In this document: positions 1 through 51,670 of the stretch, in pieces | Layout: each line of letters starts with the position of its first letter | Numbering within the stretch: position 1 is the first letter of the stretch | NCBI GenBank assembly: GCA_043822245.1 | Contig: JBDRBY010000001.1 | Coordinates: forward strand, 4,337 to 68,336 | Direction: 5' to 3' | DNA: 64,000 nt | Source of the DNA: Candidatus Omnitrophota bacterium | GTDB taxonomy: Bacteria; Omnitrophota; Gorgyraeia; Tantalellales; Tantalellaceae | Notes under the pieces: generated by a model | Told to the model about the DNA's origin: nothing | Databases searched by the model: none | Seen by the model: the letters and a program-made list of their open reading frames with translations, nothing else | Translations under genes and position numbers: made by a program

Positions 1-780
1 CGGCACCTTTAGCAACTTCGCGTGAAATTTTATTCTAAATTGTTTATCCGAGCTAAGGCGTTTTTTAAACAAAATACTTATAAAAGTTCCGGCACAGGCT
101 ATCGGAATCCATAACTTCCTTACTGTCCAACCTAATCCAAGGACAATCTTTGTCGGGATAGGAAGTTGCGCGCCTGAAGCGCTGAATACCATTACAAACT
201 TGGGTAAAACCCCGATTACAAGAAAATTAATCACCACAAAAGCGACTACAACCAAAACTACCGGATAGACCAATGCCGATGCTATCCGGGATTGAGTCTC
301 CATCTCTTGTGTTCCTAAAAGAGCTACCCGGTCCAAAATCGTATCCAGCAACCCGCCCGCTTCCCCGACCTGTACCATGCATACAAAAAGCTCGGAAAAG
401 GCCTCCGGATGTTTAGACAGGGCACTTGAAAAGTTTTCTCCTTTTTGCACATCCTGACGAACACCCTCTATGATTAATTTTAGTTTCTTATTCGTTGTTT
501 GTTCCGAAACTGCGGACAAAGCCTCAGAAAGAGGGGTACCCGAGTGGAGTAAAATCGCGATCTGGCGTGTAAACAGGATTATGTCACGTTTCCTGAAATT
601 TTGAAATCTATCTAAAACGGCGGTAATTGAAAAATTTCCGTTTTCTTTGCTTCTAATATCAATAACGCTGTAACCCATCTCACCTAACCGGACAGTAAGA
701 GCACTTTCACTTTCCGATTCCATTGTGCCGGTTATCAATTCTCCCCTGTCATCTCTCGCTCTGTAAGAGTATTGTGCCAT
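1..780 (-). CDS. pilC: Type IV pilus assembly / type II secretion platform protein PilC/GspF, N-terminal ~260 aa; the C-terminus runs off the window start
   Basis: Minus-strand ATG at 778-780 preceded by a GGCGG SD-like site. My manual translation (MAQYSYRARDDRGELITGTMESE...GTPLSEALSAVSEQTTNKKLKLIIEGVRQDV...GEAGGLLDTILDRVA...) shows T2SSF-domain architecture with no stop to position 1. It sits in a pil gene neighbourhood. Confidence 0.7.
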   Translation of the reverse strand, partial: MAQYSYRARDDRGELITGTMESESESALTVRLGEMGYSVIDIRSKENGNFSITAVLDRFQNFRKRDIILFTRQIAILLHSGTPLSEALSAVSEQTTNKKLKLIIEGVRQDVQKGENFSSALSKHPEAFSELFVCMVQVGEAGGLLDTILDRVALLGTQEMETQSRIASALVYPVVLVVVAFVVINFLVIGVLPKFVMVFSASGAQLPIPTKIVLGLGWTVRKLWIPIACAGTFISILFKKRLSSDKQFRIKFHAKLLKVP

Positions 781-839: not shown

Positions 840-1952
840 TTACGAATTCGCGTATTTATCAAAATAGTAACTCGACATTATATCATTTTTTAGATACTTG
901 GCGAAGATCAACGAAAGGTTAAAATAGATCTCTTTATCCGTACCATCTCCTTGTAACGCCTGCTCATAAACCATAACAGCCTTCTTATATTGGCCTTTTT
1001 GCGTATAAAGATATCCCAAATTGTATTTACTTTCTTTTTCATCAGGGCTTATTGCTAAAACCTTGTTGTAATACCGGATTGCTTCATTTAAATTTTCTTC
1101 AAGTGAATAAAGATATCCAAACGCGAGGTACACGCTAACCTTGTCTTTTGCTTTTGTATCAAACTTGCTATTTATCGGCGATAAAATTTCATAGGCGCCT
1201 ATCTTTTTTTTCATTTCGGTTATAGTTCCATTTAACTGAACTTTTTCTTGCTGATTAGTTTTTTGCAAATCCAGAAAATGCTTCTGTATATCATCCTTTT
1301 TTTCCTCTAAGCCTTTATTCCGCGCTGCCAGGCCTTCCAGCTTTTTCCCAAGTTCCGCGTTCGCCAATTCTGTTTCTTTCAGCCTGCCTGCTGTTTTCTC
1401 TGCCGCCTGTTCCCGCGTGTTTAACTCTCCCAGTAACCGTTGGTTTTCCACGCGCGTTTTCTCAACTTGTTCCGCTAACTCGCTTATCTTCTTCTCGCTC
1501 TGGGTATATTCTCCCTTTAACTTGCCCGCGTCTTTTGCCAACACGGCCTTTTCTTCCTCTAAGCCTTTATTCCGCGCTGCCACGCCTTCCAGCTTTTTCC
1601 CAAGTTCCGCGTTCGCCAATTCTGTTTCTTTCAGCCTGCCTGCTGTTTTCTCGGCCGCCTGTTCCCGCGTGTTTAACTCTCCCTGTAACCGTTGGTTTTC
1701 CACTCGCGTTTTCTCAACTTGTTCTTTTAATGTCCTCTTTCCTTCTACAGTAGCATCGTATTGTGCTCGCAATTTTTTATTTTCTACAAAGAGATTCTTT
1801 ATCTTTCCTGTGATAGTTTCCTCTATTTTGTCCAATTCTTTCTCCAGATTGTGTGTTTGCTCCTGCGCTTTAACAGAAACTGCTCCCGCGAAAAATAAAA
1901 AAAGAAAAACCACTGTCGCAACTTCGGCTCTAGACTTAATTTGCTTTTTCAT
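840..1952 (-). CDS. Secreted or membrane-anchored coiled-coil protein with C-terminal TPR repeats (FimV/HubP-like pilus-associated scaffold?). It contains a near-identical internal tandem duplication of ~57 aa.
   Basis: Track ORF 840..1985. An internal Met at 1952 begins a signal/TM segment (MKKQIKSRAEVATVVFLFLFFAGAVSVKA) and is preceded by GGAG. The central region is heptad-rich (ENQRL.GELNTREQAAEK...). The C-terminus has TPR-like repeats (AIRYYNKVLAISPDE...YNLGYLYTQKGQYKKAVMVYEQAL). Confidence 0.6.
   Translation of the reverse strand: MKKQIKSRAEVATVVFLFLFFAGAVSVKAQEQTHNLEKELDKIEETITGKIKNLFVENKKLRAQYDATVEGKRTLKEQVEKTRVENQRLQGELNTREQAAEKTAGRLKETELANAELGKKLEGVAARNKGLEEEKAVLAKDAGKLKGEYTQSEKKISELAEQVEKTRVENQRLLGELNTREQAAEKTAGRLKETELANAELGKKLEGLAARNKGLEEKKDDIQKHFLDLQKTNQQEKVQLNGTITEMKKKIGAYEILSPINSKFDTKAKDKVSVYLAFGYLYSLEENLNEAIRYYNKVLAISPDEKESKYNLGYLYTQKGQYKKAVMVYEQALQGDGTDKEIYFNLSLIFAKYLKNDIMSSYYFDKYANS
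1302..1721. repeat. Intragenic tandem duplication: two 171-bp copies (1302-1472 and 1551-1721), ~98% identical, period 249 bp
   Basis: Direct comparison of the two segments gives 4 mismatches in 171 bp. It encodes the duplicated EKTRVENQRL[QL]GELNTREQAAEKTAGRLKETELANAELGKKLEG block. Confidence 0.85.
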
Positions 1953-2065
1953 TTTTACTCCTATCGTTAGTTTTGGTATTGTCAAAAGTTTTTATCAAAA
2001 TTTTTCTTACCACAATCGACGCGTATTTGATTTTAGATTCATTTTGCGGTTTGTCTTGTTGTATT

Positions 2066-2200
2066 AAATCCCCCTAGCCCCCTTTTTCAAAGGGGGGAAC
2101 GTTCTGCTCCTTTTTCAAAGGGGGGAACGTTCTGACCCTTTTTCAAAGGGGGGAACGTTCTGACCCTTTTTCAAAGGGGGGAAAAGATCTGCCTTTTTTT
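2066..2200 (+). repeat. Array of 4 tandem ~29-bp units, each containing the hairpin CCCCCTTT-TTC-AAAGGGGG followed by GAACGTTCTGA, preceded by the leader AAATCCCCCTAG (locus 1 of a 6-locus family)
   Basis: Read directly: aaatccccctagccccctttttcaaaggggggaacgttctg, then ctcctttttcaaaggggggaacgttctga, ccctttttcaaaggggggaacgttctga, ccctttttcaaaggggggaaaagatctg. It lies between the pilQ stop and the promoter of the coiled-coil gene. Confidence 0.9.
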
Positions 2201-2281
2201 TAAAAAAGAGAATGGAAACTACTTCATTACTTCTTTCATAATTTTTCCATTTTATTTTTAACATTATCTTAGCTTTCGTAA

Positions 2282-4006
2282 TTAAGAATCTTCTGTCAAA
2301 ACCTTCAAATCAGCTTTCCTCGTTCGGCTTACTCTATTGTAAGAAGATAATGACATTATTCTATACTGTTCTTTCGCGTCTTTAACGAAAAAACTGTTCG
2401 GGTAATCAGAAATCACCTGAGAAAATACCTCTTTGGCTTTCGCGTAATCTTTCACTTCATCCTGGTAAATTTTACCTGCAAGATATAATGCCTCAGGCGC
2501 ATGGGCTCCATCCGGAAACTGGGTATAAATATTCATGTAGAGATTAAGCGCTTGTTGTTTTCTGAAATGCTTGTCTTTTCTAACACTTTCCACGCCTTTG
2601 CCTTTATCTAACGCTTTCGCTTTTCTTAAGATTTCCGCGGTAAGGCACAGTTCCGCTGTTTTCTCAATATGTACATGAGTTTCTTCCTCTTCAGCCTCTT
2701 CTTTGTTTAATCGTTTTTTCTCTTCACGTGACCGCAAAATTCGCGGAGTAATAAAAACCGCTAATTCCGTCTGCTGATCCGTACCCTCGGTTCTCGAAAA
2801 CAACGCTCCTAAGAAAGGAATATCGCCTAAAAAAGGGATTTTGTCTCTAGAAACGTCACTCTGCTGTTTTATCAGGCCTCCGATCACCAGCGTCTCGCCT
2901 TCTCTAACTCGCACGGTCGTGTCGGCTTCTCTTGTTGTGATCCTGGGACCCGCGTCCAAAGATTCGGCCAAGGAAGATACTTCCGGGTGTACTCGCATTG
3001 TGATATAACCGTCGTCATTTATCTGCGGAGTTACCTTCAAAGTCGTGCCTATGTCAACAAATGTCGTAGTTTCCGTAGTGCCGGTAGTCGTTTGCGTGCG
3101 CTCTTTGATGGGATATCTCTGCCCTATAATTATGCGCGCCTCCTGACCGTTCAAAACAGCGATAGACGGAGAAGCCAAAAGATTTGCTTTGCCGTCTCTT
3201 ATCAACGCGTCAATTGTCGCGGTAACATTAAGCCCCTTTATACTAAAAGTGTTAAGGACAAACTGCCCCCCGGTTAGAGTGGAAGATTGTTCAGCCATGC
3301 TCATGGTAAGATCCGCTTCCTCTGCGGTTTGCGTAATCCGGTCAAAAAGGCCCTGGCCGGGAGCGTAATCCACATTCCATGTGGTACCCAAAGCTTTTAT
3401 TTCGTTAGATGTGATATCCACAACCTTGGCCTCAACAAGAATCTGCTGAGGGGGGATATCCACTTTTTTAAGCAAATCTTTGATCCTCTGGATATTTACC
3501 GGATAATCCGTAATAATGAGGCTGTTTTGAACGTCATCCGTCTTTATGTCACCTTTTGCCGAAAGAACTTTTCTTAAAAGGTTTTGAGCATCTGCTGACC
3601 TTATGTAATCCAGGAAGATTACCTCCGTTGTAAACTCCACGCTCTCTCCGCCGCCTGAAGACACGTAAATAATGTCATCTCGGACGCTGTAAACTAAGCC
3701 GTTCACATTAAGTATGGCTTTGAGCGCGTTTTCCACGCTCACATTTTTCAAATTTACCGTTACCGTCCCTTTTACATCTGGGCTCGTAACCACGTTAAGG
3801 TTGTACGTCCAAGCGAAAGATCTCAGAATATTCACGACATCCGCGTTTTTGTACTCAAGGTTCACGGGCTGTTGAAATATTTCTTCAACCGTAAGTATTT
3901 TTTTGTCAGGCGCGACGGTTATCCATTCCTCAGCCGCGCCTGAGGCGTTTATAAGGAATAGTCCCGCCACGATGAATACCACGACTTTATTTCTTTTTCT
4001 CAGCAT
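2282..4006 (-). CDS. pilQ: Type IV pilus secretin PilQ with a C-terminal TPR/YbgF-like extension
   Basis: Secretin N-domain and secretin-domain motifs (LLASPSIAVLNGQEARIIIGQ, VFITPRIL). The start is refined to Met19 of the track ORF (ATG at 4006) with a GAGGGG SD 5 nt upstream and signal peptide MLRKRNKVVVFIVAGLFLINASGAA. The last ~120 aa (APEALYLAGKIYQDEVKDYAKAKEVFSQVISDYPNS) resemble the YbgF/TPR fold. Confidence 0.8.
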   Translation of the reverse strand: MLRKRNKVVVFIVAGLFLINASGAAEEWITVAPDKKILTVEEIFQQPVNLEYKNADVVNILRSFAWTYNLNVVTSPDVKGTVTVNLKNVSVENALKAILNVNGLVYSVRDDIIYVSSGGGESVEFTTEVIFLDYIRSADAQNLLRKVLSAKGDIKTDDVQNSLIITDYPVNIQRIKDLLKKVDIPPQQILVEAKVVDITSNEIKALGTTWNVDYAPGQGLFDRITQTAEEADLTMSMAEQSSTLTGGQFVLNTFSIKGLNVTATIDALIRDGKANLLASPSIAVLNGQEARIIIGQRYPIKERTQTTTGTTETTTFVDIGTTLKVTPQINDDGYITMRVHPEVSSLAESLDAGPRITTREADTTVRVREGETLVIGGLIKQQSDVSRDKIPFLGDIPFLGALFSRTEGTDQQTELAVFITPRILRSREEKKRLNKEEAEEEETHVHIEKTAELCLTAEILRKAKALDKGKGVESVRKDKHFRKQQALNLYMNIYTQFPDGAHAPEALYLAGKIYQDEVKDYAKAKEVFSQVISDYPNSFFVKDAKEQYRIMSLSSYNRVSRTRKADLKVLTEDS

Positions 4007-4049
4007 ATTTCCCCTCTTTAGTTTAATTTTCGCCATTGACAACGAAACG

Positions 4050-4907
4050 TTACCTTTCAACCGCTATTAAGTATTCTTCAACACCGTCCGTCAAAATAAT
4101 TTTGTCTTGCTCTATTTTTTTGAGCGTGTACTCGCCTATCACGGAACCTTCCTTCACAACTTCACCTCCTACAATAGCTGTTGGAATCCCAGCGTTGTAG
4201 GTTATTCCTTCTAATTTTATGTCAATCTTAGCTTTTGTCGACTCCGGCCGTACTTTCGAAACAAAAATATCCCGCAGTTCATAAAAACCATCCTTCGTTT
4301 CTTTCGCCTTGAGCTGTTCAGAAAAGGGAACGTCGCCCAGCAGGCTCGATACCACGAGCTTGATTAAACTGTCAGACTCTTTTTTTCTTTTTTGAGGCTC
4401 TGAAATTTCCAATTCTTCTACCTTAAGGAATGGGGATATTGTTTCCACTTGCCGGATGTAATCGACAATTTCCGAAAAAGGCGCGTCAAACCGTATCTCG
4501 ACAAAAATACGGGAATATTCCTCTCCCTTGTCTATTTTCTGGCGTATCGAGTCTATTTTTATATCTTTCGCGAGCCGTGTAAGTTCGGCGATTAAGCGCG
4601 CTGTCGCGTTCTTACTAGGAAGTTTTTTTTCCATCGCCTCTATCTCTTCAAACAGTTCCGCGCCCCTGTTCTGTTCTTCTTCAATCCGTTCCCTGCCTGC
4701 CTGTATCTCCGGATGTTGAGCTTTTATCTGCTCGAATTGCTTTGTCAATCGTTCGGTTTGAGTTTTATATATAAGGAGATTCCCGGTCAAAGGCTTATAG
4801 ACCGCTCCATAATAAAGGATGACACCAAGAATCGCGGCAAAAGCCGTTACGGCAATCCTTTCCCTTTTACTCAAGCTTTTGTATTTTTCTATTATGTTTT
4901 TTCCCAT
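4050..4907 (-). CDS. pilO: Fused PilO-like (TM plus coiled coil) and PilP-like (C-terminal beta domain) pilus alignment protein
   Basis: Start refined to the internal ATG at 4907, 1 nt after the pilMN stop. An N-terminal TM helix is followed by a coiled coil typical of PilO. The C-terminal ~90 aa beta-rich segment sits just upstream of pilQ, as PilP does. Confidence 0.55.
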   Translation of the reverse strand: MGKNIIEKYKSLSKRERIAVTAFAAILGVILYYGAVYKPLTGNLLIYKTQTERLTKQFEQIKAQHPEIQAGRERIEEEQNRGAELFEEIEAMEKKLPSKNATARLIAELTRLAKDIKIDSIRQKIDKGEEYSRIFVEIRFDAPFSEIVDYIRQVETISPFLKVEELEISEPQKRKKESDSLIKLVVSSLLGDVPFSEQLKAKETKDGFYELRDIFVSKVRPESTKAKIDIKLEGITYNAGIPTAIVGGEVVKEGSVIGEYTLKKIEQDKIILTDGVEEYLIAVER

Positions 4908-4908
4908 G

Positions 4909-6774
4909 TTATTGGAATACCACCACCTCAAAGCTATAGACCTGCTTATCCTGCTCTTTTTGCGTGTAACTGAACTTCGCGTCTGAAAACACATCCGTCT
5001 CTTTTACCTTCTCTATAAGCTGAGTAATTAGTACCAGGTTAACAGTAGAACCGACTATCACAAATTTCCCTTCTTCATACTTCAGGCTGTTAACCCATAC
5101 CTCTTCCGGCAAAAGAGCCGCTATCGAACCAAGCATTTTTGAGACATCTACCGGATTTCTTTTCGCGTCGTTAAGAATCTTGAGCTGCGCCTCCAGTATT
5201 TTTTTCCGGTTAACCAATTCATTTTCTTCTTTGGCAAGGTTAATCCGCAAAATCTCATGTTTAGACAAATCAATTTTCGCTTTATCAACCTTTTTTGCCG
5301 ATTCTTCCATCCGCGATTTATAAAACCCTGCCGTTCCCGCCAAAAAACCGCTTAACACAATTGACACGACAAGTAACCCCGTTACTATCTGGACCGGCCG
5401 CTGCCTAAATGCTGTCCACAGAATTTTGAGCGGCTCCTGTCCCGATTCCGGTAGAAAATTCACTCTCCGGGTACTTGCTGCCTTTTGTCCGATAGAAAGC
5501 CCCGCGCCTATCGTAAAGAGGCCGGGTTCCGTTACCAGCACGGCCTTTTGTTTCTTCACACTTTCTAAAACCCTGAACACAGAGAACGGGTCAAAATACT
5601 CTACTGGAACACCTAATTTAACATTCAGAAATTTTTCCAAATTTTTCAGTTTCGCCCCGCCGCCGGATAAAATCACGCGGCTAAACCTCCTGACCTGAGA
5701 CTGCGCGACCTGAAACGAAAAATGCTTAAACAAAAGTTCTATTTCCACCACTAAATTCTCAAGCGCGGATACAAGCGCGTAATAAATCTGTTCCGAGCTG
5801 TCCTTCGATTTTTCAAACAACTCAACATTCCCGCCCAGAGGGGAGAATACTTTATCTTTCGACCAAAAACTAAAGCCATGTTCTTTCTTCAGTTCTTCAG
5901 CCTTTTCTTCGGAAACCCTGCACTGTTTGGCAATGTTCTTGTTTATTCGATCCGAAGTTAAAACAATCTCTTTGGAGAAACATAACGAACGGCTCTTGGA
6001 AACCGCCAAAAAACTTTCCTCCGCGCCTATGTGCACCCATAACTCCACATCCTCTTCATATTCGGACTGCTCATAAATACTGCTGAGGTTCACCAAGCCA
6101 AACTGCGGAGATTCAACGCTGACGGGCTTAAAACCCGCGGCTTCCAACAACGCGATGTGCCTGGCCAGGGCATCTTTGGAAACGCACGCGATAACCACTC
6201 TTTCTTGTGAAACACCTCCGGTATTTTCAGTGATTTTCCATTTTTTGAATTTGCACACCAATTTTGCCCAGCTCAATCCAAATGGTTTAAGCTGGGCAAT
6301 TTTGAACCGGATAGCGGATTCTAATTCTTCATCCGGCATAGGGGGAAACATCATATTGTAAATCTGGACATCCCGCGCGGATAAAGCCGTCACACACGCC
6401 GGGCCGGTATCATTGCGGCCTCTCAGAGCTACTAAAGCGTTTTTTGTCGCGGAAAAAGAATCCTTGACAGAGGGAGCGTCGTAAGGCTGGCTGTCAACAT
6501 TGATGATCTCAAATCTTTTCTTTTCATCCACACCCAAACGGATCATTTTCACAGCTCGGGAACCGATGTCTATAACCACAGGCAGAGGCTTTATATCTTT
6601 CATGTCCGAGAGTGCTTCCGCGAGCTCTTTTTTCGAAGAAGGCACGATTTTGCGGATGTTCTTGCTGTATGTAAAAATACTTGAAACACCTCCTGCCACG
6701 GCTTTCGGGCGGTCAAACACACTTTTTACCAGATCATCCGGCAAGGCATTTGGAGTCTTTTTGTTTTTATCCAT
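4909..6774 (-). CDS. pilM: Fused PilM (actin-like ATPase fold) and PilN (TM plus periplasmic domain) pilus assembly protein
   Basis: The N-terminal half carries PilM/FtsA-like motifs (VVIDIGSRAVKMIRLG...ILSGGGAKLKNLEKFL). It is followed by a TM helix (VTGLLVVSIVLSGFLAG), a coiled coil and a PilN-like C-terminus, and it overlaps the parA stop by 8 nt. Confidence 0.65.
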   Translation of the reverse strand: MDKNKKTPNALPDDLVKSVFDRPKAVAGGVSSIFTYSKNIRKIVPSSKKELAEALSDMKDIKPLPVVIDIGSRAVKMIRLGVDEKKRFEIINVDSQPYDAPSVKDSFSATKNALVALRGRNDTGPACVTALSARDVQIYNMMFPPMPDEELESAIRFKIAQLKPFGLSWAKLVCKFKKWKITENTGGVSQERVVIACVSKDALARHIALLEAAGFKPVSVESPQFGLVNLSSIYEQSEYEEDVELWVHIGAEESFLAVSKSRSLCFSKEIVLTSDRINKNIAKQCRVSEEKAEELKKEHGFSFWSKDKVFSPLGGNVELFEKSKDSSEQIYYALVSALENLVVEIELLFKHFSFQVAQSQVRRFSRVILSGGGAKLKNLEKFLNVKLGVPVEYFDPFSVFRVLESVKKQKAVLVTEPGLFTIGAGLSIGQKAASTRRVNFLPESGQEPLKILWTAFRQRPVQIVTGLLVVSIVLSGFLAGTAGFYKSRMEESAKKVDKAKIDLSKHEILRINLAKEENELVNRKKILEAQLKILNDAKRNPVDVSKMLGSIAALLPEEVWVNSLKYEEGKFVIVGSTVNLVLITQLIEKVKETDVFSDAKFSYTQKEQDKQVYSFEVVVFQ

Positions 6775-7666
6775 TTTTCACTTTTGTTCGCGCGACAACT
6801 TCCTCGGTCAACGCGGCGTAATCCTTCGCGCCCTTGGAAGATGGCTCGTAATCAAATATTGATTTCTTATTCGCCGCCGCCTCAGCCAGCGTAATGTTGA
6901 CCCTTATGACTGACCGAAAAACTTTATCTCCAAAGTATGATTTTAACTGTGAAAAGATAGTCCTATCCATCCTTGTCCGCTTGTTAAACAATGTGGGAAG
7001 TATCCCGAGTATCTCAAGATCGGAATTCAGCCTGCCTTTAATAATCTCGATTGTGGAAAAAAGTTCCCTCATACCCTCCAGCGCGAAGTAATGAGTCTGA
7101 ACGGGAACAAGAATAAATTTCGAAGCTACTATCCCGTTTATGGTCAAGAGGTTTAAAGATGGGGAACAATCAATCACAATATAGTCGTAGTGTTTGTTCC
7201 TCGTGTTTATCATTTTGTAAAGGGCGTTTCTTAAAATTCCTTCCCTGCCCAAAAGATCCGCGATTTCGAGCTGTGCCCCGCTGAGCATCGGGGTCGCAGG
7301 CACAAGGCTTAATCCCGCGCAGGAAGTTCCAACAATAGTTTTTTCCATGTCAATATTTTTGACAAGGACGTCGTAAATCGAACACTCTACGTCGTCCACT
7401 CTGACGCCTAACCCTAACGAAGCGTGAGACTGCGAATCTAAGTCTATGATGAGGACTTCAAAACCCCTCTTCGCCAAAGCCGCCGCGAGGTTAATCGCGG
7501 TTGTGGTTTTTCCGCATCCGCCTTTTCGATTAGCGACACAGATAACCGACGAATCTTTTTTTTCTTCTTTTTCTTCAAAACGCGGCAGGTTGATGTCGGG
7601 AAAGCCCGGAACCTGAAACCCTTTTTGTTTTTGTTCCCTGAACATTGATTTTATCTCATTGAGCAT
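6767..7666 (-). CDS. ParA/Soj/MinD-family P-loop ATPase (deviant Walker A KGGCGKTT) with a ~40-aa N-terminal extension, co-operonic with pilMNOPQ
   Basis: [28 protein letters not shown]...LIIDLDSQ. ATG at 7666 with a GGAGGTGGAG SD. The stop overlaps the pilMN start. Confidence 0.8.
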   Translation of the reverse strand: MLNEIKSMFREQKQKGFQVPGFPDINLPRFEEKEEKKDSSVICVANRKGGCGKTTTAINLAAALAKRGFEVLIIDLDSQSHASLGLGVRVDDVECSIYDVLVKNIDMEKTIVGTSCAGLSLVPATPMLSGAQLEIADLLGREGILRNALYKMINTRNKHYDYIVIDCSPSLNLLTINGIVASKFILVPVQTHYFALEGMRELFSTIEIIKGRLNSDLEILGILPTLFNKRTRMDRTIFSQLKSYFGDKVFRSVIRVNITLAEAAANKKSIFDYEPSSKGAKDYAALTEEVVARTKVKNG

Positions 7667-7684
7667 GCTCCACCTCCGACTCCT

Positions 7685-7921
7685 TTAAACGCTATAGCCT
7701 TTATCAAACCTTCGTTGTATAAGCCGCAGTGTATACCCCTCTTTTCTCATGTTTGTAATCGTGTCAAAGACGCTGCTAATCCCTTTTTTGTCGTACAGCC
7801 GCACGTTACCCTTGCGAACACCGACTTTGAAAAGCCCGATATTTGTGTAATAATTAATTGTCGCGACTGAAACCTTCAAATCTTTCGCCAGCTCTTTCGC
7901 TGTAACAAATTTTTCCAGCAC
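7685..7921 (-). CDS. Small MerR/excisionase-type HTH DNA-binding protein (~79 aa)
   Basis: HTH TAKELAKDLKVSVATINYYTNIGL followed by an LYD motif. The track ORF starts at a TTG (7939). An in-frame GTG at 7921 has the strong SD GGAGAGGAGGTGG and is preferred. It ends 18 nt before parA. Confidence 0.5.
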   Translation of the reverse strand: MLEKFVTAKELAKDLKVSVATINYYTNIGLFKVGVRKGNVRLYDKKGISSVFDTITNMRKEGYTLRLIQRRFDKGYSV

Positions 7922-8107
7922 GAGCCACCTCCTCTCCAATCATGTAAGCAAACAATTGTTTCAAAATGTCATTTTGAAGTGTACACAAAAACCAATGAAT
8001 AGTCAAGCCATTGTGTGTAATTATTTTAGCTCCGCTACATATTGTTTTTCAAAACAAACATCATGTTAGCATCTGTTAACGCATACGGTTGTTTCGTTGA
8101 TTGTTTT

Positions 8108-8306
8108 TAAATAGGGACGTTTTAAATAGGGACGTCACCCATTTATTCACCCATTTATTTGAGACGCGATAAATCGCGTCTCTACGTTATTGGTTTCTTT
8201 TTTAAATAGGGACGTCACCCATTTATCGTTAAATAGGGACGTCACCCATTTATTCACCCATTTATTTGAGACGCGATAAATCGCGTCTCTACGTTATTGG
8301 TTTCTT
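8108..8306. repeat. Tandem duplication of a ~95-bp unit. Each unit has two copies of AAATAGGGACGTCACCCATTTAT plus the perfect 22-bp palindrome GAGACGCGATAAATCGCGTCTC. This is iteron-like and sits upstream of the merR-parA-pil operon.
   Basis: Read directly. Unit 2 overlaps the last codons of yggS, so unit 1 is a duplication of the yggS 3' end region. The palindromes are at 8161-8182 and 8268-8289. Confidence 0.85.
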
Positions 8307-8962
8307 TCTCCAAATATTTTTGTGCCGATTCGGATTATGTTCGCGCCTTCGGCTATCGCGGCGCGATAAGAGTTTGTCATGCCCATTGAAAGATACCGCA
8401 TTTCTACTTCCGCGAGGCCTGCCGACTTTACTTTTTCGAATACACTGCTTGTTTCAACAAAATAAGGCCGGGCATCGTCCGGATTTCCGGAGGCCGGCCC
8501 CATCGTCATTAATCCCTGTACTTTTATGTTGGTCAAAAGCGCGATTTGTTTAACAAGTTCCATAACTTTTTCAGGCAATACACCGTATTTCTGAGATTCT
8601 CTCGCGCTGTTAACTTCAATAAATACCGGCATCACCTTACCGGCCGCTCCGCACCGCCTGTTTATCTCGTCAGCTAATTCTATTGAATCAACTGTTTCAA
8701 TCAAATCAAATATCTCTATGGCTTTTTTTATTTTGTTTTTTTGCAAATGGCCTATAAAATGCCATTTTACTTTGCCGCTGAGAGTATTAACTACCCTGGC
8801 GGCTTCTTGCACATAATTTTCTCCAATGATTTTTATCCCGGCATCAACAGCCTGTTGAATCTCGTCGCGGGTTCTTGTCTTAGCGACCGCTACCAACATA
8901 ACCCGCGTGGGAATTTCTTTTAGCAACTGCTCAACATTCTGTTTAATCAGGCCGCTTCTCAT
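8294..8962 (-). CDS. yggS: YggS/PLPBP-family pyridoxal-phosphate homeostasis protein
   Basis: MLVAVAKTRTRDEIQQAVDAGIKIIGENYVQEA...IGHLQKNKIK, characteristic of the alanine-racemase-N-fold YggS family, ~220 aa. Confidence 0.8.
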   Translation of the reverse strand: MRSGLIKQNVEQLLKEIPTRVMLVAVAKTRTRDEIQQAVDAGIKIIGENYVQEAARVVNTLSGKVKWHFIGHLQKNKIKKAIEIFDLIETVDSIELADEINRRCGAAGKVMPVFIEVNSARESQKYGVLPEKVMELVKQIALLTNIKVQGLMTMGPASGNPDDARPYFVETSSVFEKVKSAGLAEVEMRYLSMGMTNSYRAAIAEGANIIRIGTKIFGERNQ

Positions 8963-9618
8963 CTTGCTATAAGCCTTTGCGGTTTTTTATTTTTGGTATA
9001 ATCTCTCGGGCCGCATATTTTTTTCATATCACTCAGGCGGCCGCGCTGTTTTAAACGGTCATAAATTTCCAGCCAGGCGCAGTCCATATCTTTGTCAATT
9101 TCGCATTTCCCCCGTTTGGTTCCGCCGCATGGCCCGTTTACCAAACCTTTGGCACAAGATGTTACAGGACAAATTCCGGCTGTTTGCGAAAGCAGGCATT
9201 CTCCGCACAAAGAGCATTTTTGAGAAAATTTTATTTGTTTCAAGTTCGCTTCAATAATCGCGCCTTGAAAAAGTGTGTCATTGCCGGGAAGTACCTGCTT
9301 TTCCGTAACCTTGGCGGCAATAATTTGAGTTCCCCCTCCGCACGCGAAACTCAAAATCACGTCGGCATTATCTATCAGGGCTTGCTCTTTCCGGTAAAAC
9401 CTTTTTACTTCTACCGCGCTGCATGCGGGGTCCAAAACCGCCATTCCCAGAACTGAAATCTCTTTATCCAAAAGTTTTTTTGCCATGGCCTTTAGCTCCT
9501 CCTCTCCGCCCGTCTTACACGTAGAGGCGCAAACGGCGCATCCTGCTAAAAAGACCTTCGCTCCGCGCTCTATCTTTTCTGTTATTTCCGCAATGGGTTT
9601 TTGTTTTGTGACGATCAT
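8959..9618 (-). CDS. Cys-rich putative Fe-S/Zn-binding protein (MTHFR C-terminal-like / CCG-like domain)
   Basis: Multiple CxxC/CGG motifs (GCAVCASTC, FACGGGT, CSLCGECLL, NGPCGGTKRGKC) and an overlap with the yggS start. Function is not inferable from the sequence alone. Confidence 0.4.
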   Translation of the reverse strand: MIVTKQKPIAEITEKIERGAKVFLAGCAVCASTCKTGGEEELKAMAKKLLDKEISVLGMAVLDPACSAVEVKRFYRKEQALIDNADVILSFACGGGTQIIAAKVTEKQVLPGNDTLFQGAIIEANLKQIKFSQKCSLCGECLLSQTAGICPVTSCAKGLVNGPCGGTKRGKCEIDKDMDCAWLEIYDRLKQRGRLSDMKKICGPRDYTKNKKPQRLIAR

Positions 9619-10052: not shown

Positions 10053-11621
10053 TTAGTTTCCCTCTTTTTCATTTACCCTTCGTTTTCCCCAGGCAAGTTT
10101 TACCATAATTGCCAGGGCGAGAAACAGTAGGCATAGGCAAACACGGGTTATTATCACGTAAATTTTATTATCCGCGGGCACGTTATCCATCCGCAGAATC
10201 GGAAGCCATTCTTGAAAAACCCACGCGGCAAGTACTGCTATCAGGAAGGCGGGGGTAACGTATTTGATGACATATTTATATGCTGCTGGTATCTTCATAT
10301 CCGCGCCGTGATGCACTTCTTCCCACGCTTTATTTATGCCGAATACCCATCCGAAGAGTATCACTTCAACCGCGGCAAAAAGCACTAAGCAAAATGTCCC
10401 GCCCCAGAAATCTAACTCATCAACGACACCTTTACCGAGGAAAAATATAACAGCGTTACACAATATAAAGGTGACTGCTCCAAATATCGCTACAGCCCTT
10501 TCCTTTGATACCTTGAATTCATCCTCCAAAAACGCGACCGCGGGCTGTGCCAGAGACACCGACGAAGTCACACCCGCGAGGAACAAAAGGCCAAACCATA
10601 AAAAACCAAAGAGTTCAGGCAAAGGCATCTGTTTGAAAATAAGCGGCATTGAAACAAAACCCAGATTAAACGCGCCTGAATTGGCGATATCTCCTATCGC
10701 CATGGGCCCGAAAAAAACAAACGCCGCCGGTATTACTATGCTGGCGCCAAGCACAACTTCCGCGATTTCATTCATGCTTACCGCGGTAAGGCCGGACAGC
10801 GCGACATCATCACCTTTTTTTAAATAACTGGCATATGTCAATATCACGCCAATCCCCACGCTTAGGGTAAAAAATATCTGCCCGGTCGCGGCAAGCCAAA
10901 CTTTCGCGCTTTTAAGAAGTGAAAAGTCAGGGTTCCACAAATATCCAAGCCCACCCGAAACATTCCAATCCGGGTTCGCGTGGTCTAAAACACCGAGAGT
11001 TAACACCCGAATAACCAGCACAATGCCAAAAATAAACAATGTCGGTACCGCGATTTTGCAAAATTTTTCTATCCCCCCGCGTATCCCATGTTTCAGAATA
11101 ACCATGTTGATCGCGAAAGTCATAAGGAAAAATACGTATGCTGGAAGTATGCTTGAAAAATGTTGATTTTTTTCTAAACCCTGAAACCCTCGCAGGAAGG
11201 CCTGCATGGAGGCTTGGCCGGCTATATTCGAATATTTTTGTGTTAAAGAAAAAAAACTATACGCCAAAGTCCAGGACTCAATATAGGTATAATAAATCAT
11301 AATGACAAGCGGACCGAATATACCTATAACACCGAAATATTTGATAAACCTGTTCTTTTTCCAAAGGCTGTGAAAAACACCGGGCGCGCTCGAGTGGCCA
11401 AAACCACCGCCATAACGCCCTATTGCCCATTCAACCCACATAAGAGGAATCCCTACCAAAAGAAGCGCTATGAAATAAGGTATCATAAACGCGCCGCCGC
11501 CGTTTTTCGCGGCTTGTACCGGAAACCGCAAAAAATTTCCTAATCCCACGGCTGACCCCGCTACCGCCATAATAACCCCCAAACGCGATCCCCATAAATC
11601 CCGAGGCTTCATGTTACTCAT
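10053..11621 (-). CDS. Sodium-dependent transporter of the neurotransmitter:sodium symporter (NSS/SNF) family
   Basis: N-terminal NSS signature GSAVGLGNFLRFP...GGAFMIPYFIALLLVGIPLMWVEWAIGRYGG; ~12 TM helices; 522 aa. Confidence 0.85.
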   Translation of the reverse strand: MSNMKPRDLWGSRLGVIMAVAGSAVGLGNFLRFPVQAAKNGGGAFMIPYFIALLLVGIPLMWVEWAIGRYGGGFGHSSAPGVFHSLWKKNRFIKYFGVIGIFGPLVIMIYYTYIESWTLAYSFFSLTQKYSNIAGQASMQAFLRGFQGLEKNQHFSSILPAYVFFLMTFAINMVILKHGIRGGIEKFCKIAVPTLFIFGIVLVIRVLTLGVLDHANPDWNVSGGLGYLWNPDFSLLKSAKVWLAATGQIFFTLSVGIGVILTYASYLKKGDDVALSGLTAVSMNEIAEVVLGASIVIPAAFVFFGPMAIGDIANSGAFNLGFVSMPLIFKQMPLPELFGFLWFGLLFLAGVTSSVSLAQPAVAFLEDEFKVSKERAVAIFGAVTFILCNAVIFFLGKGVVDELDFWGGTFCLVLFAAVEVILFGWVFGINKAWEEVHHGADMKIPAAYKYVIKYVTPAFLIAVLAAWVFQEWLPILRMDNVPADNKIYVIITRVCLCLLFLALAIMVKLAWGKRRVNEKEGN

Positions 11622-13026: not shown

Positions 13027-14070
13027 CTATATTGTCAAAACAGAATCAACTGTGCCGAACGCATTTCTTTTCGCGGAAGGATTTTTGGGATCTCTTATCC
13101 ATTCTTCATCTACCAAAAACTTATACCGGTAAGTTCCTTTGTTTAAAATGAAATGAGCTGACCATTCCCCGTTTTCAAGCCTTGTCAATCTGCTTACTTC
13201 CGCCTTCTGCCACCCGTTAAAATCTCCAAGCACGTATACTCCCCCTGCCTCCGGAGCCTTAAACGCGAACTCATGGATAGCGGCCGAAGTATTCACGCCT
13301 TCGGCAGAGAGAATCTCACTCGTTAAATTGTAAAAATCCAAGGCAACGTTAGACTTACAATCAGTCTCAAATATTGTCCTGCCGACCTTGGCCGCTTCTC
13401 TTAATTTCATACTCACGCGCACTTTTGTTTTTAGCAGATATGGCCCCAGTTTGCGTATCGCGTCTTTTTCAAGTTCTCTTACAAACTTTGACCGATGGTC
13501 GTACATATTCATGACAAAAAAAATCGGCGGCCTTCTCCCTGTTTCCTTTTTTAAGAGCCCTGCCACGCGGTACACGCTGTTTATCCCATTAAACGAAAAG
13601 TAGCTCATATCCATCGGGACAACCATCATATCCGCGGCAAACATAGAATTGAGCGTGAGAAAACCAAAACTCGGAGGTGAATCAATTATCACATATTCGT
13701 ATTTTTCAAAAAACCGAGAAGCTAAAAGCCGGGACAGTATAGATGCCGCGCCTTTTACTGTTCCTAAATTAATTTCAGCCGCGCTCAGCATCATGTTTGC
13801 CGGAATGAACGAAAATTTTTCGCGGCCTGTTATAAGCATCTCTGCCACAGGAACATCCTTGCCGCTGAAGCGCGCTTTAAAAATATCGTAAGATGTTTTA
13901 CAATCAGAAGCCTTCTCGCTATATCCCAGAGCGAAAGTTGCGTGCGCCTGCGGGTCCAAATCTATCAGTAAAATCTCACTGCCAAACCGCGCGAGAGCCG
14001 CCGCGATATTCACCGCGAGTGTCGTTTTCCCACAGCCACCCTTTTGATTTGCAATTGATATGACCTTCAT
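13027..14070 (-). CDS. ParA/MinD-family ATPase fused to a C-terminal AMPK-beta-type glycogen-binding domain (CBM48)
   Basis: N-terminus [27 protein letters not shown]...LLIDLDPQ (deviant Walker A). The C-terminal ~80 aa ([53 protein letters not shown]) matches the AMPK1_CBM/CBM48 consensus (GSFNNW...Y.YKF.VDG.W..DP). SD is GAGGAG. Confidence 0.8.
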
Positions 14071-14233
14071 ATTGCTCCTCTTAGACCATTTTTTGGTATT
14101 GTCAAAAGTTTGTATCCGAATTTTTCTTAATCCTTCGCGTCTAAGACGGTCATCTAATATTAACCTTCATCCCCCTCAAACTTGTCATTGCAATCTCCGC
14201 GAAGCAATCTTATATTCTATCCCACCTTAAAAT

Positions 14234-14325
14234 TCTCCCTGGCCCCCTTTTTCAAAGGGGGGAACGTTCTGACGCTCTTTCAAAGCGCGGAAATATATCT
14301 GTCCTTTTTTCAAAAAAGAGAAGCG
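14234..14325 (+). repeat. CCCCCTTTTTCAAAGGGGGGAACGTTCTGAC hairpin repeat (locus 2) plus two degenerate following copies, in the divergent promoter region
   Basis: tccctggccccctttttcaaaggggggaacgttctgacgctctttcaaagcgcggaaa...tccttttttcaaaaaagagaa. Confidence 0.8.
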
Positions 14326-14492
14326 AAACTACTTCATTATTTTTTTCATAATTCTTTCATGTTATTTTTAACATTATCAATTTTTTAATTTGAAAGAAGT
14401 ATAGCACACGAAAATAAAAAGGGAAAGGCGTATTTTTTTTCATAGCCCCTACACAAAGAACAAATTATGTGGCATACTATGACTGAATTTTT

Positions 14493-15380: not shown

Positions 15381-15399
15381 CAATTACTTAGCGAAGGAA

Positions 15400-15435
15400 A
15401 AATCCCCCTCTGTCCCCCTTTTTCAAAGTGGGAAG
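15400..15435 (+). repeat. AAATCCCCCT-CCCCCTTTTTCAAAG(T)GGG hairpin repeat (locus 3, slightly degenerate) between convergent genes
   Basis: aaaatccccctctgtccccctttttcaaagtgggaagtcg. Confidence 0.75.
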
Positions 15436-19830: not shown

Positions 19831-19898
19831 TTAAATCCCCCTGGCCCCCTTTTTCAAAGGGGGGATGGATTGAAATAAGGGAGCTAGGGGGATTTAAG
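19831..19898 (+). repeat. Most complete copy of the hairpin repeat family: leader TTAAATCCCCCTGG + CCCCCTTTTTCAAAGGGGGG + inverted leader CTAGGGGGATTTAA (MITE-like, with terminal inverted repeats)
   Basis: cttaaatccccctggccccctttttcaaaggggggatggattgaaataagggagctagggggatttaag. Confidence 0.85.
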
Positions 19899-25622: not shown

Positions 25623-25958
25623 TTTTGATTTTACATTTTCAAGATTGTCGGGGATATTACAGGTCCCCTTACAAATGGGGGGTGGCAAAACGTTAAAAAT
25701 AAAATAGTCAGTCTCTTGACCTTGCTATTTTTACTTTTATGGTTCATACTTGATACATAGAGTAATAATGACGTGTTCTTTCATATTGCTTAAGTTCCAT
25801 CAAACGATAAAGGCAAACTATTCGAAAGAATAGGGCTGCAATGTCATGAGCCTAAATCCCCTTTTGGGGACATGGTCGTCAGACTGCCGAATTTGACTCC
25901 TTTGGATTTTCATCTCAATCTGACTTTTTTGCGGCCCTACTGTTTAAGGCGGGGAGAG

Positions 25959-27435: not shown

Positions 27436-27443
27436 AACATTGT

Positions 27444-33137: not shown

Positions 33138-33161
33138 AGAGACGCGATTAATCGCGTCTCT
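33138..33161. repeat. 24-bp perfect palindrome AGAGACGCGATTAATCGCGTCTCT (same family as 8161 and 8268)
   Basis: Read directly; it lies between lpxA and the coiled-coil gene. Confidence 0.85.
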
Positions 33162-37198: not shown

Positions 37199-37672
37199 TT
37201 TACCTCCTCAAAGGTAATTGCATCAAACAGCTCAAAGCTGTCTCTTTGAAACATTTATTAAAGAGCAAACATTGTGTCTGCACTTATTTTTTATATGAGT
37301 ATCGCCGATAAGTTTGCAGTTTCAGGCTATTCTCCACGTGAAAATTATTTCCTCCCCCCTTTCTTTGCCAGAATCGAAACTACTTTGGCGGTACAGGTCT
37401 CTCTCACCAATGTTATGTGAAGTATAACACGAAACACGACTTAGTCAAGAGTGAAAAGTAGAAAAAAATAATGTTAGGTCAAAAAAAATTTTACTTAGAT
37501 CTGAGTGAAAGGATAGGTATCCGTTTGGCGGCGAATCGTTCCAGTGCTCGAACACAGCCATCCGCCTCTTTTGCTGCTCTGCGAGAAGTTATACCAACTC
37601 TAAAAATTAAATGCCCACAATTTTCCACCACTTTGGAAAAGAGGGTAGGGGAATTTTTTGTAAATCCGGAAT

Positions 37673-37707
37673 AAAATCTCCCATATCCCCTCTTTGTCAA
37701 AGAGGGG
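37673..37707 (+). repeat. Degenerate hairpin-family member AAAATCTCCCATATCCCCTCTTTGTCAAAGAGGGG (locus 6)
   Basis: Read directly, inside the 580-bp non-coding region upstream of the OMP gene. Confidence 0.6.
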
Positions 37708-38482: not shown

Positions 38483-38600
38483 CATAGGTATAAAATCCCC
38501 CTAACCCCCTTTTTCAAAGGGGGGAAAGTTGTAATTGTTTACCATCTTTTTCAAATTGGGGAAAGTTGTAATTGTTTACCATCTTTTTTGAAGGGGGGAA
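38483..38600 (+). repeat. Hairpin-family array (locus 5): AAAATCCCCCTAACCCCCTTTTTCAAAGGGGGG followed by ~2.5 tandem 37-bp units (CTTTTTCAAA[GT]TGGGGAAAGTTGTAATTGTTTACCAT)
   Basis: Read directly; it overlaps the 3' end of the transglutaminase-like gene. Confidence 0.85.
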
Positions 38601-39214
38601 ATTTCGTCACCATTTTCTCTTAAATCACTGAGCCATTTATTAAACATCATGGAAAAACGAAAAAGTTTCAGCTTTTCCGGAAAATCATACACCTCCTCAG
38701 CTCGCCCTTCGCTCAAGCTCTCAACTCTTCGCCCGAGACGCTGTGATACCTTTAACGGCATCACAGCGTTCAGCATAGAACTTTTCCCATCCCAACGATC
38801 GTTAATTGGAAAACCTGCGGTTTTTAGCGCCCGATCCCATGTCGCGTCTATGAGTATCCATCTATTGACAATGTATGCTTCACACGCGAAATGATATGTT
38901 ACAGGCAGTTTTTCTGCCGCGGCTTTTAACGAATCAGAAGATATCGCTTTAAGTTCACTCCATCTAAAAGGATAGGAGCAATACTTCACCGGAATGCCTA
39001 ATTCCTTAAACATCACGCCTAAGAGGTAGTGTTTGGAAACACAAAATCCTTTGTTCTTTTTTATCATGGCCTCAGAGCTTTTTTCATTATCGAAAAGCTT
39101 TAAGTCTATCGCGTAAGGGATGTCTCTAATGTGCTCAAAAACACTTACGCGCGCTCTGTCCGTGGCCTCCCCTTTTGTCCATTCCCTGAATGTTTCCTTT
39201 ATAATTCCTTCCAT
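38576..39214 (-). CDS. Transglutaminase-like (Cys-His-Asp) superfamily protein
   Basis: Candidate triad in GFCVSKHYLL, YHFACEAY, LIDATWD. Confidence 0.5.
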   Translation of the reverse strand: MEGIIKETFREWTKGEATDRARVSVFEHIRDIPYAIDLKLFDNEKSSEAMIKKNKGFCVSKHYLLGVMFKELGIPVKYCSYPFRWSELKAISSDSLKAAAEKLPVTYHFACEAYIVNRWILIDATWDRALKTAGFPINDRWDGKSSMLNAVMPLKVSQRLGRRVESLSEGRAEEVYDFPEKLKLFRFSMMFNKWLSDLRENGDEISPLQKRW

Positions 39215-45454: not shown

Positions 45455-45654
<200 letters not shown>

Positions 45655-45660
<6 letters not shown>

Positions 45661-51606: not shown

Positions 51607-51670
51607 TTCTTCACCATCCCCTATCCCCTATTCACTATTCACTATTCACTAACCCCTATTCACCATCCGG
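51596..51670. repeat. Heptamer array (CNCYATY x8: caccatc ccctatc ccctatt cactatt cactatt cactaac ccctatt caccatc)
   Basis: Read directly, between recO and the DUF502 gene. Confidence 0.7.

Follow-up and report, generated by a model that had tools for sequence, protein, structure and literature searches.

This study concerns the head of a type IV pilus operon in an uncultivated Omnitrophota bacterium, as read from a 64,000-nucleotide stretch of contig JBDRBY010000001.1 (assembly GCA_043822245.1) that is referred to below as the window. All the genes of the operon lie on the minus strand, and they are headed by a gene for a small MerR-type helix-turn-helix (HTH) protein and by a ParA-type ATPase gene, with a prominent array of repeats upstream of both. 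The genes, starting from the upstream neighbour, are as follows.

8294-8962, minus strand: yggS-like gene for a pyridoxal-phosphate-binding protein, with its stop codon at 8294-8296; the upstream neighbour of the HTH gene
7685-7921, minus strand: MerR-type HTH gene, 78 amino acids, operon gene 1
6767-7666, minus strand: ParA, 299 amino acids, a Soj-like ATPase, operon gene 2
4909-6774, minus strand: PilM-PilN fusion, 621 amino acids, with Pfam PilM_2 from residue 68, plus PilN
4050-4994, minus strand: PilO/GspM-like gene, by Pfam and synteny; the true start is likely to be the ATG at 4907
2282-4060, minus strand: PilQ-type secretin with a C-terminal tetratricopeptide repeat (TPR; YbgF/CpoB-like) extension, by Pfam and NCBIfam
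840-1985, minus strand: coiled-coil and TPR protein, by Pfam, the gene being preceded by a repeat array of its own at 2066-2199
1-780, minus strand: PilC/T2SSF platform protein, truncated where the window ends, by tblastn with the PilC of locus L002 (56% identity, 3e-83)

The presence of PilM, PilN, PilO, a PilQ secretin and PilC (Pfam/NCBIfam, tblastn) identifies the cluster as of the type IVa or MSHA-like kind; PilB with an MshEN domain and the pilins are found in relatives and lie beyond the window edge here. The yggS-like gene and the HTH gene are 372 nt apart, and the ParA open reading frame (ORF) overlaps that of the PilM-PilN fusion by exactly 8 nt, ATGGATAA, as a first-pass annotation of this DNA had stated.

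The distribution of these genes was followed with a profile search for the HTH protein in the representative genomes of the Genome Taxonomy Database, which gave 49 loci from Omnitrophota, including contigs titled 'uncultured Planctomycetia/Planctomycetales' that were taken as the same phylum, and the gene content of each locus was established by tblastn and blastp with the window proteins. The order HTH-ParA-PilM(N)-PilO-secretin was found in about 33 non-redundant loci with varying upstream neighbours, and the longer order HTH-ParA-PilM(N)-PilO-secretin(-PilC-pilins-PilB) is shared by L001, L002, L004 and L005, where the upstream genes are unrelated. The first-pass annotation had asked whether the HTH-ParA pair stays with pilM/N/O and the secretin in relatives, and in these loci it does. 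The distance from HTH to ParA is often 12-30 nt, and ParA stands directly upstream of pilM(N) in every ParA-containing locus with sequence past ParA, the exceptions to a readable adjacency being L010, which breaks off within pilMN, L011, which holds runs of N, and L031, in which no PilM match was found. L011 (CP070780.1, labelled as a complete Omnitrophota chromosome) was considered as a counter-example with ParA but no pilM and was rejected because of those runs of N, which lie at 10250-11062, inside parA and a neighbouring giant ORF. No relative was found with this ParA unlinked from the pil genes, and there was no adjacent ParB gene in any locus with listed called genes.

The HTH protein and ParA are separable in both directions, which argues against the HTH protein being an obligate ParA adaptor. 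HTH genes without ParA occur in at least six pilus or secretin loci, either as HTH-PilM-PilN-PilO-secretin (L027, L030) or as HTH-secretin (L032, L034, L038, L047), and more distant HTH homologues head ExeA/MshM-like and secretin clusters or EPS clusters (L051-L054), or unrelated genes. The opposite case is seen in L059-L061, the three loci sampled through ParA homologues, which have ParA-PilM(N)-PilO-secretin without the HTH gene; tblastn detected none in them, the gap of 182-185 nt in L059 and L060 being too short to hold one and that in L061 measuring 404 nt.

The presence of ParA goes together with a feature of PilM. Codons 1-65 of the PilM-PilN fusion (6580-6774) encode an N-terminal extension, rich in Lys, Pro and Ser, that is absent from canonical PilM. 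Across loci the extension is 55-75 amino acids long and carries the motifs [DN][IL]VKx[IV]F[DE]Rx and [VI]Sx[IL]FT[HY]. It was found in all 38 of the ParA-containing loci with a readable PilM (35 seeded by the HTH search, together with L059-L061), it is absent from four loci without ParA (L027, L032, L038, L047), and L030 is ambiguous. In a neighbour-joining tree of the secretin, which carries no support values, the ParA-less loci fall at two separate places inside the ParA-containing diversity, which suggests that ParA was lost at least twice, each time together with the extension. ParA/MinD ATPases commonly bind the N-terminal regions of their partners (PMC11407121) and the ParB peptide that occupies the pocket of the ParA dimer has been described as hydrophobic residues around one Lys or Arg (PMC12462528), a description which the IVKxIF of the PilM extension resembles. 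The extension is for these reasons put forward as a candidate ParA-docking peptide.

The HTH gene was given by the ORF tool as 7685-7939 (84 amino acids), but the real start is the GTG at 7921, since the match to homologues and to P0121 of NCBI (100% identity over 78 amino acids) begins there, and this GTG is preceded by the Shine-Dalgarno sequence GAGAGGAGGTGG. The protein scores above the Pfam cut-off with MerR_1 (PF13411; 40.1 bits against 21.6) and below it with the excisionase-type HTH_17 (PF12728; 18.6 bits against 27). No integrase lies near the gene, whose setting is a conserved chromosomal pilus operon, and an excisionase or AlpA-type HTH was rejected on the grounds of the low HTH_17 score and the absence of a mobile-element context. 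An AlphaFold2 model (predicted local distance difference test score 88) has the topology β-α-α-β-β-α-α and is structured from residue 5; it consists of a winged HTH with a two-helix wing, and the chain stops at residue 78 once the second wing helix is complete, with no coiled-coil, effector domain or flexible basic N-terminal tail. Foldseek matched the model to the DNA-binding domains of BmrR, MtaN, SoxR and NmlR, with template modelling scores of 0.75-0.79, and both Foldseek and the sequence profile showed similarity over the whole length to GlnR and TnrA. The protein has the N-terminal winged HTH of the MerR family (PF13411, Foldseek), whereas the long coiled-coil helix and effector domain of the classical members are missing and the window operator discussed below does not lie inside a 19-20 bp promoter spacer. 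The protein is a minimal, DNA-binding-domain-only member of the MerR family. The earlier description of a MerR/excisionase-type HTH protein of about 80 amino acids with a strong Shine-Dalgarno sequence holds as to size, MerR fold and ribosome-binding site, and not as to the excisionase affinity.

When the upstream regions of relatives were aligned, a palindrome centred on GTTAAC was noticed by eye. A position weight matrix (PWM) trained on these sites, with the consensus ATAGTAtaTGTTAACAaaTACTAT, was run against the window in its entirety and against all non-redundant loci, together about 800 kb. Every match of at least 14 bits lay 38-215 nt upstream of an HTH start codon, with none elsewhere in that sequence, and about a dozen sites with the variants GTTAAT, ATTAAC or GATAAC reached 14 bits though they were outside the training set. 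The best members of the family are perfect 22-bp palindromes such as TAGTACTTGTTAACAAGTACTA. Between one and three such sites are present per locus. Their position relative to a strong TTGACA-17-TATAnT promoter varies from upstream through overlapping to downstream, and in L040 and L042-L044 the site overlaps the promoter spacer. In the window the elements between the repeat array and the HTH gene are these.

8066-8089, minus strand: GTTAAC-centred palindromic site ACCGTATGCGTTAACAGATGCTAA, PWM score 18.8 bits, family consensus TAGTAcTTGTTAACAAgTACTA
7978-8006, minus strand: sigma-70-type promoter TTGACT-17-TACACT, counterpart of the TTGACA-17-TATAnT promoters in relatives
7960-7978, no strand assigned: perfect 19-bp palindrome TTCAAAATGtCATTTTGAA, which abuts the -10 element and is present in the window and absent from L004 and L005

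The distance from the centre of the operator to the start of the -35 element is 71 nt in the window, 71 nt in L004 and 72 nt in L005. The GTTAAC palindrome, given its co-occurrence with the gene, is the obvious candidate for the operator of the HTH protein, and the palindrome at 7960-7978 is possibly a second one. Another perfect palindrome in the HTH leader, AAACAATTGTTT at 7950-7961, is likewise not present in L004 or L005. On the best model that these co-occurrences suggest, the HTH protein would be the transcription factor of the operon and not an adaptor for ParA, and its dimer would bind the GTTAAC palindrome or palindromes and so autoregulate the operon promoter.

The ATPase itself belongs to the ParA/MinD (deviant Walker A) family. 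It matches Pfam AAA_31 (5.9e-54) and also CbiA, it has the deviant Walker A motif KGGCGKT at residues 48-54, and this motif, D75/D77 and D166 are invariant in 55 ParA orthologues. The catalytic motifs are all intact and the core, which begins near residue 40, is confidently modelled by AlphaFold2, with residues 1-36 disordered and with no C-terminal amphipathic helix beyond the core in the model; the disordered tail opens with the clade-conserved motif M[FL][DE][DE][LI]K[SA]xF in the alignment. The ParA/Soj-like ATPase with an N-terminal extension of about 40 amino acids that was first proposed is therefore confirmed by Pfam, alignment and structure prediction. The nearest solved structures are Myxococcus ParA (8RAY, 2e-58) and Thermus Soj (3e-53). 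The position of the DNA-binding Arg of Soj is Thr in the window ParA, Thr or Ala in its subclade and Lys or Arg in many orthologues, and loss of this Arg as a feature of the clade was rejected, the position holding T, A, S, K or R among orthologues.

The upstream repeats, which had been taken for iterons or a centromere, tell a different story from that of the conserved genes. They comprise the following.

8105-8307, no strand assigned: tandem array of repeats that separates the operator from the stop codon of the yggS-like gene (8294-8296)
8161-8182, no strand assigned: palindrome GAGACGCGATAAATCGCGTCTC, copy 2 of the duplication, of the dispersed hairpin family (G)TAGAGACG...CGTCTCT(AC)
8268-8289, no strand assigned: palindrome copy 1, 4 nt past the yggS-like stop codon on the minus strand

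A perfect 79-nt unit is present twice at a spacing of 107 nt (8122-8200 and 8229-8307), so that the tandem duplication described earlier is real but its unit is not of about 95 bp. The array holds three full 23-mers, AAATAGGGACGTCACCCATTTAT, at 8124, 8204 and 8231, with one half copy at 8109-8119, where four repeats had been counted, and five 12-mers, TCACCCATTTAT. Both of the 22-bp palindromes reported are there, although they are not perfect, since arms of 10 nt pair perfectly around a non-complementary AA centre (20 of 22 positions). Such repetition is far beyond chance, with none expected from shuffled sequences. On the coding strand the duplicated unit starts with AAAGAAACCAATAA, the last yggS-like codons and the stop (the last 14 nt of the gene), so that the array appears to have arisen through tandem duplication of a segment with its start inside that gene; all copies are 100% identical, an indication that the event was recent. 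The palindrome at 8268-8289 is probably the original 3'-end hairpin of the yggS-like gene.

Nothing comparable was found in relatives. The sub-repeats of the array are absent from the 57 comparison loci searched, with up to four mismatches allowed for the long elements, and in L004, which is the nearest relative (84% ParA identity), the available 268 nt upstream contain none of the repeats. Tandem Repeats Finder was applied to 47 loci, over the 500 nt that precede the HTH gene, and reported a substantial array in the window only and not in the 46 others, and an unrelated 29-nt repeat (x2.3) upstream of the HTH gene in L001. The repeat unit had no match in plasmid and phage collections, nor its 21-mer in viral contigs, and an origin of the repeats as plasmid or phage iterons is accordingly unsupported. 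A search of the repeat region and the whole window against Rfam gave nothing relevant to the repeats, and a terminator scan found no canonical terminator at the hairpins, which are not followed by a U-tract on the coding strand. The 23-mer was also considered as a DNA-uptake sequence, a reading rejected because all copies within the 64 kb are at one locus.

Elements related to the array are, however, dispersed. The array palindrome occurs again, with one central base changed, as GAGACGCGATnAATCGCGTCTC(TAC) at 33139-33160, in the gap that separates an lpxA-like gene from a small ORF, and related hairpins of the form GTAGAGACG...CGTCTCT lie at 27439 and 35634, so that the intergenic GC-cored hairpin family (G)TAGAGACG...CGTCTCT(AC) has members at 8161, 8268, 27439, 33139 and 35634. 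A second dispersed intergenic family, AAATCCCCCTnGCCCCCTTTTTCAAAGGGGGG, occurs at 2066-2199, 14231-14292, 15390-15432, 19833-19894, 37664-37706 and 38493-38614, and it is tandemly amplified (x4 and x3) at 2066-2199 and 38493-38614, the former array standing between the secretin and TPR genes of the pilus operon; this second amplification indicates a genome prone to intergenic amplification of this kind. An exact-match scan of the JGI metagenomes for the 21-mer core of the array palindrome found it in three independent contexts. In L056 (identical in L058), an unrelated metagenome contig with a GC content of 0.47 and no pilus genes, the 22-mer AAATAGGGACGTCACCCATTTA forms a perfect inverted pair, 9069-9090 and 9111-9132, with a 20-nt loop, and the start of the pair coincides with the stop codon of an RND-transporter gene beside a Memo-like gene; in L057 one copy of the 22-mer lies within an array of CCATTTCTATAAATGG palindromes; and the match in L055, inside a coding region, may be due to chance. 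The resemblance is to repetitive extragenic palindromic (REP) sequences, bacterial interspersed mosaic elements (BIME) and Correia-type elements, which are likewise short GC-cored palindromes at gene ends, dispersed and in inverted pairs, and which share the tendency to local tandem amplification seen in the array at 8105-8307 and in the other window families. They differ in that only a handful of copies is present in 64 kb here and no associated transposase was identified. The array is best explained as the product of a recent amplification, at this one locus, of a palindromic element that is dispersed elsewhere, probably of a REP-like kind or like a miniature inverted-repeat transposable element (MITE), along with the yggS 3' end and its terminal hairpin. 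It is lineage-specific, lies outside the conserved module and is not a conserved centromere. The negative result matters, as it was the repeats that first caught the eye.

Taken together, the favoured explanation, in which we have somewhat better than even confidence, is that the HTH protein regulates the operon, that ParA is an accessory of the pilus machine acting through the PilM tail, and that the repeat array has no part in the machinery. The observations beneath it are the order of the genes and their conservation, the specificity of the operator site, the protein folds and the patterns of co-occurrence. ParA, whose translation is often coupled to that of PilM-N, would cycle between a monomer and an ATP-bound dimer, and the dimer would engage the disordered, Lys-rich tail of PilM(-N) in the way that other ParA/MinD ATPases engage the peptides of their partners. 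By this route ParA would govern where, when or how many cytoplasmic platforms assemble. The earlier proposal that ParA places, counts or regulates the pilus machine remains the best reading for this protein. A broader formulation is offered more tentatively, and we would put it at rather less than an even chance. The Omnitrophota would have recruited a Soj-like ParA into a PilMNOQ-type pilus machine, where it would dock on a newly evolved, motif-bearing PilM tail, and nucleoid binding or ATP cycling might set the position or number of machines, possibly for DNA uptake, in ultra-small cells, with the minimal MerR protein and the GTTAAC palindrome providing control of the operon.

Several points weigh against the favoured explanation. 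The correlation between ParA and the PilM extension amounts to about two loss events on a rough neighbour-joining tree with an ambiguous L030, and the ParA-less HTH-secretin loci may belong to a different pilus or secretion system and not be derivatives at all. With Thr here, and Lys or Arg in many orthologues, at the position of the Soj DNA-binding Arg, ParA may or may not use the nucleoid as its matrix. In the window some 72 nt separate the operator from the -35 element downstream of it, and no proximal site was detected. The repeats are perfectly conserved copies and the site at 8066-8089 is only 10 nt from the array, so a lineage-specific regulatory role for them, or binding by another protein, may apply; moreover, the dispersed copies of the array elements were counted within the 64-kb window only. 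Binding of the HTH protein to the operator, contact of ParA with PilM, any contact between ParA and the HTH protein and the physiological output are all deduced from sequence.

An important consideration is how other arrangements of the same components compare with this explanation. The layout was originally read as a type Ib-like partition cassette in which the HTH protein binds the 23-bp repeats as a centromere and recruits or stimulates ParA to position or count pilus machines, and the physical adjacency of ParA, a small DNA-binding protein and upstream perfect repeats with dyad symmetry made this attractive, the more so in that the centromere-binding protein of type Ib systems also autoregulates from repeats upstream of parA. 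We now regard it as very improbable. The 23-bp repeats are conserved in no relative (57 loci lacked them and 46 other upstream regions showed no comparable array), they contain yggS coding sequence and recur in unrelated contexts, and the element that is linked to the HTH gene is another palindrome, the GTTAAC-centred one. A centromere-binding protein encoded downstream of parA with a stimulatory N-terminal tail is expected, whereas the HTH gene lies upstream of parA and its product has a MerR fold that begins at residue 5, with no basic flexible tail; nor is there an obligate pairing, ParA and the HTH protein each being found without the other (at least six HTH-only and three ParA-only loci). 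The claims of a type Ib layout, a 23-bp centromere and an HTH adaptor are therefore not supported. Still less credible, to the point that we would set it aside, is the suggestion that this ParA is merely the Soj of chromosome or plasmid segregation that happens to lie beside a pilus operon. Its core is indeed nearest to chromosomal ParA/Soj, but where it is present it is always immediately upstream of pilM, usually behind the HTH gene and often overlapping pilM, across lineages with different flanks, it has no adjacent ParB in any locus with listed called genes, it bears a clade-specific N-terminal motif and it is lost together with the PilM extension.

A feedback of the FleN/FleQ kind, in which ATP-bound ParA would modulate binding of the HTH protein at the GTTAAC operator and so tune transcription and the number of machines, has an established precedent in FleN, a MinD/ParA ATPase that binds the regulator FleQ. 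The adjacency of HTH and ParA in about 33 loci, often at 12-30 nt, fits such a feedback, and minimal MerR proteins such as TnrA and GlnR, structures of which came up in the Foldseek comparison, are under the control of protein partners. FleN is listed among the ParA/MinD ATPases (PMC11407121). As the core function it is nevertheless unlikely, since ParA-pilM(N) is kept in three loci without the HTH gene and the HTH gene without ParA in at least six, no feature of the HTH protein tracks the presence of ParA, and the ParA-linked PilM extension is left unexplained; such feedback may coexist with the favoured explanation but cannot be its core. A further suggestion concerns only the array, which might terminate transcription of the yggS-like gene or stabilise its 3' end and insulate the pilus promoter, or might carry sites for an unrelated protein. 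The position of the first hairpin 4 nt past the yggS stop, a very stable predicted fold of the array transcript (z = -10) and the start of the L056 inverted pair at a stop codon all point this way, whereas the coding strand has no U-tract, the terminator scan was empty, there was no Rfam match and an extreme folding energy is to be expected of any duplicated palindromes. We hold this to be doubtful, though clearly the most plausible of the four, and it is compatible with the favoured explanation of the genes.

Comparison with known systems sets the ATPase in context. By analogy of function its nearest counterpart is TadZ/CpaE of the Tad (type IVc) pili. TadZ, a MinD-like protein, carries a receiver-like domain at its N-terminus, and Tad loci contain CpaF, RcpA and Flp, whereas the ATPase here is Soj-like with a short, disordered tail of 36 residues and belongs to a T4a/MSHA-like cluster (PilM/N/O/Q-PilB/C); with the CpaE-type model of NCBIfam it scored 27 bits against a cut-off of 154, and it is not a TadZ/CpaE protein. 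TadZ/CpaE is itself a ParA/MinD-superfamily ATPase from a type IV pilus cluster that is needed to place or assemble the secretion apparatus (PMC11407121). In sequence and fold the closest proteins are the chromosomal ParA/Soj (Myxococcus 8RAY, Thermus Soj 1WCV), with the same deviant Walker A and catalytic motifs, but no ParB or parS was seen nearby, the ParA here is embedded in a pilus operon and has the extra conserved N-terminal motif, and its putative partner is a peptide on PilM and not a DNA clamp. FlhG and FleN share with it the dedication of a ParA/MinD ATPase to one envelope machine with which it is encoded and a link to the transcription factor of the regulon. FlhG, however, is MinD-like, has a C-terminal membrane-targeting helix and acts with FlhF, and neither such a helix nor FlhF was seen here, whilst by comparison with FleN-FleQ the link between ParA and the HTH protein is dispensable in some lineages (L059-L061). 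Encoding of the ATPase beside the genes of its cargo, which characterises cargo-positioning systems (McdAB, ParC/ParP, PpfA, FlhG, TadZ), is also seen here. Type Ib plasmid cassettes (ParF-ParG/parH, delta-omega) likewise combine a small Walker ParA that has no HTH of its own with a dimeric DNA-binding protein of small size and with palindromic sites or repeats ahead of the operon that would serve autoregulation as well; they differ in that the gene order is reversed, the fold here is MerR and not ribbon-helix-helix, the flexible stimulatory tail is absent, the setting is chromosomal with pilus genes following, and the conspicuous repeats are not conserved. As for the HTH protein, GlnR, TnrA and other minimal MerR proteins have the same size, the same DNA-binding-domain-only fold and palindromic target sites, such as that proposed here, but identity is only about 18-25%, the operator (TAGTAcTTGTTAACAAgTACTA) differs, a C-terminal regulatory tail is not evident and the genes headed are pilus or secretin operons.

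To our knowledge the placement and counting of type IVa pili have been worked out in only a few model species, through polar landmarks and small GTPases, and we know of no ParA/MinD ATPase tied to pili so far other than TadZ/CpaE of the Tad pili. A literature search found no paper linking ParA to PilM/N/O/Q. If the broader formulation is true, this would be the first known ParA/MinD ATPase for non-Tad type IV pili, and a conserved Soj-like ParA tied to the PilM-N/O/Q operon, with a PilM tail that evolves along with it, would add a new class of cargo to the ParA/MinD family in the form of a simple peptide-ATPase pair. Appendages of this kind are believed to underlie the lifestyle of the Omnitrophota, which involves attachment and perhaps the uptake of DNA or contact with a host, and the analysis defines a small MerR-type regulator with a candidate operator for pilus and secretin operons across this uncultivated phylum.

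A number of other features of the cluster and the window deserve mention. In L059 genes for ComEA-like (HHH_3), ComEC-like (Competence) and PilZ proteins, at 1741-4815, lie directly upstream of the ParA-pil cluster, and a PilZ gene lies upstream of the pilus cluster in L002 (9094-9489). Together with the MshEN domain on the PilB of relatives, these Com and PilZ neighbours hint at a pilus for DNA uptake and/or one under the control of cyclic di-GMP (c-di-GMP). In the window a c-di-GMP-I riboswitch (25802-25891, plus strand; 66 bits against a gathering score of 35) stands ahead of an ORF of 379 amino acids that has a signal-like segment at its N-terminus. The PilM-PilN fusion and the secretin gave sub-threshold matches to the models for the Akkermansia pilus-complex proteins Amuc_1101 and Amuc_1098, and the fused PilM-N architecture may be common to Verrucomicrobiota (Akkermansia) as well. 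The coiled-coil/TPR gene contains an internal duplication of 178 nt (1295-1472 and 1547-1724; 97% identity, 252-nt offset), which is also seen in the translation as a repeated protein segment. A second ParA-like ATPase (13027-14070, minus strand) is fused to a C-terminal AMPK1_CBM/CBM48 glycogen-binding module (Pfam), and L011 has a homologue as well, within a few kb of its HTH-ParA pair; a ParA/MinD ATPase with a carbohydrate-binding module might position glycogen granules. About 300 nt upstream of the coiled-coil/TPR gene and of the gene for this fusion are homologous (1971-2268 and 14091-14378; 82-92% identity), which suggests a common promoter or leader and possibly co-regulation. Elsewhere, heptad arrays of the CACTATT/CCCTATT type at 45461-45659 flank a tRNA gene (45493-45566) and recur 6 kb away at 51590-51668.

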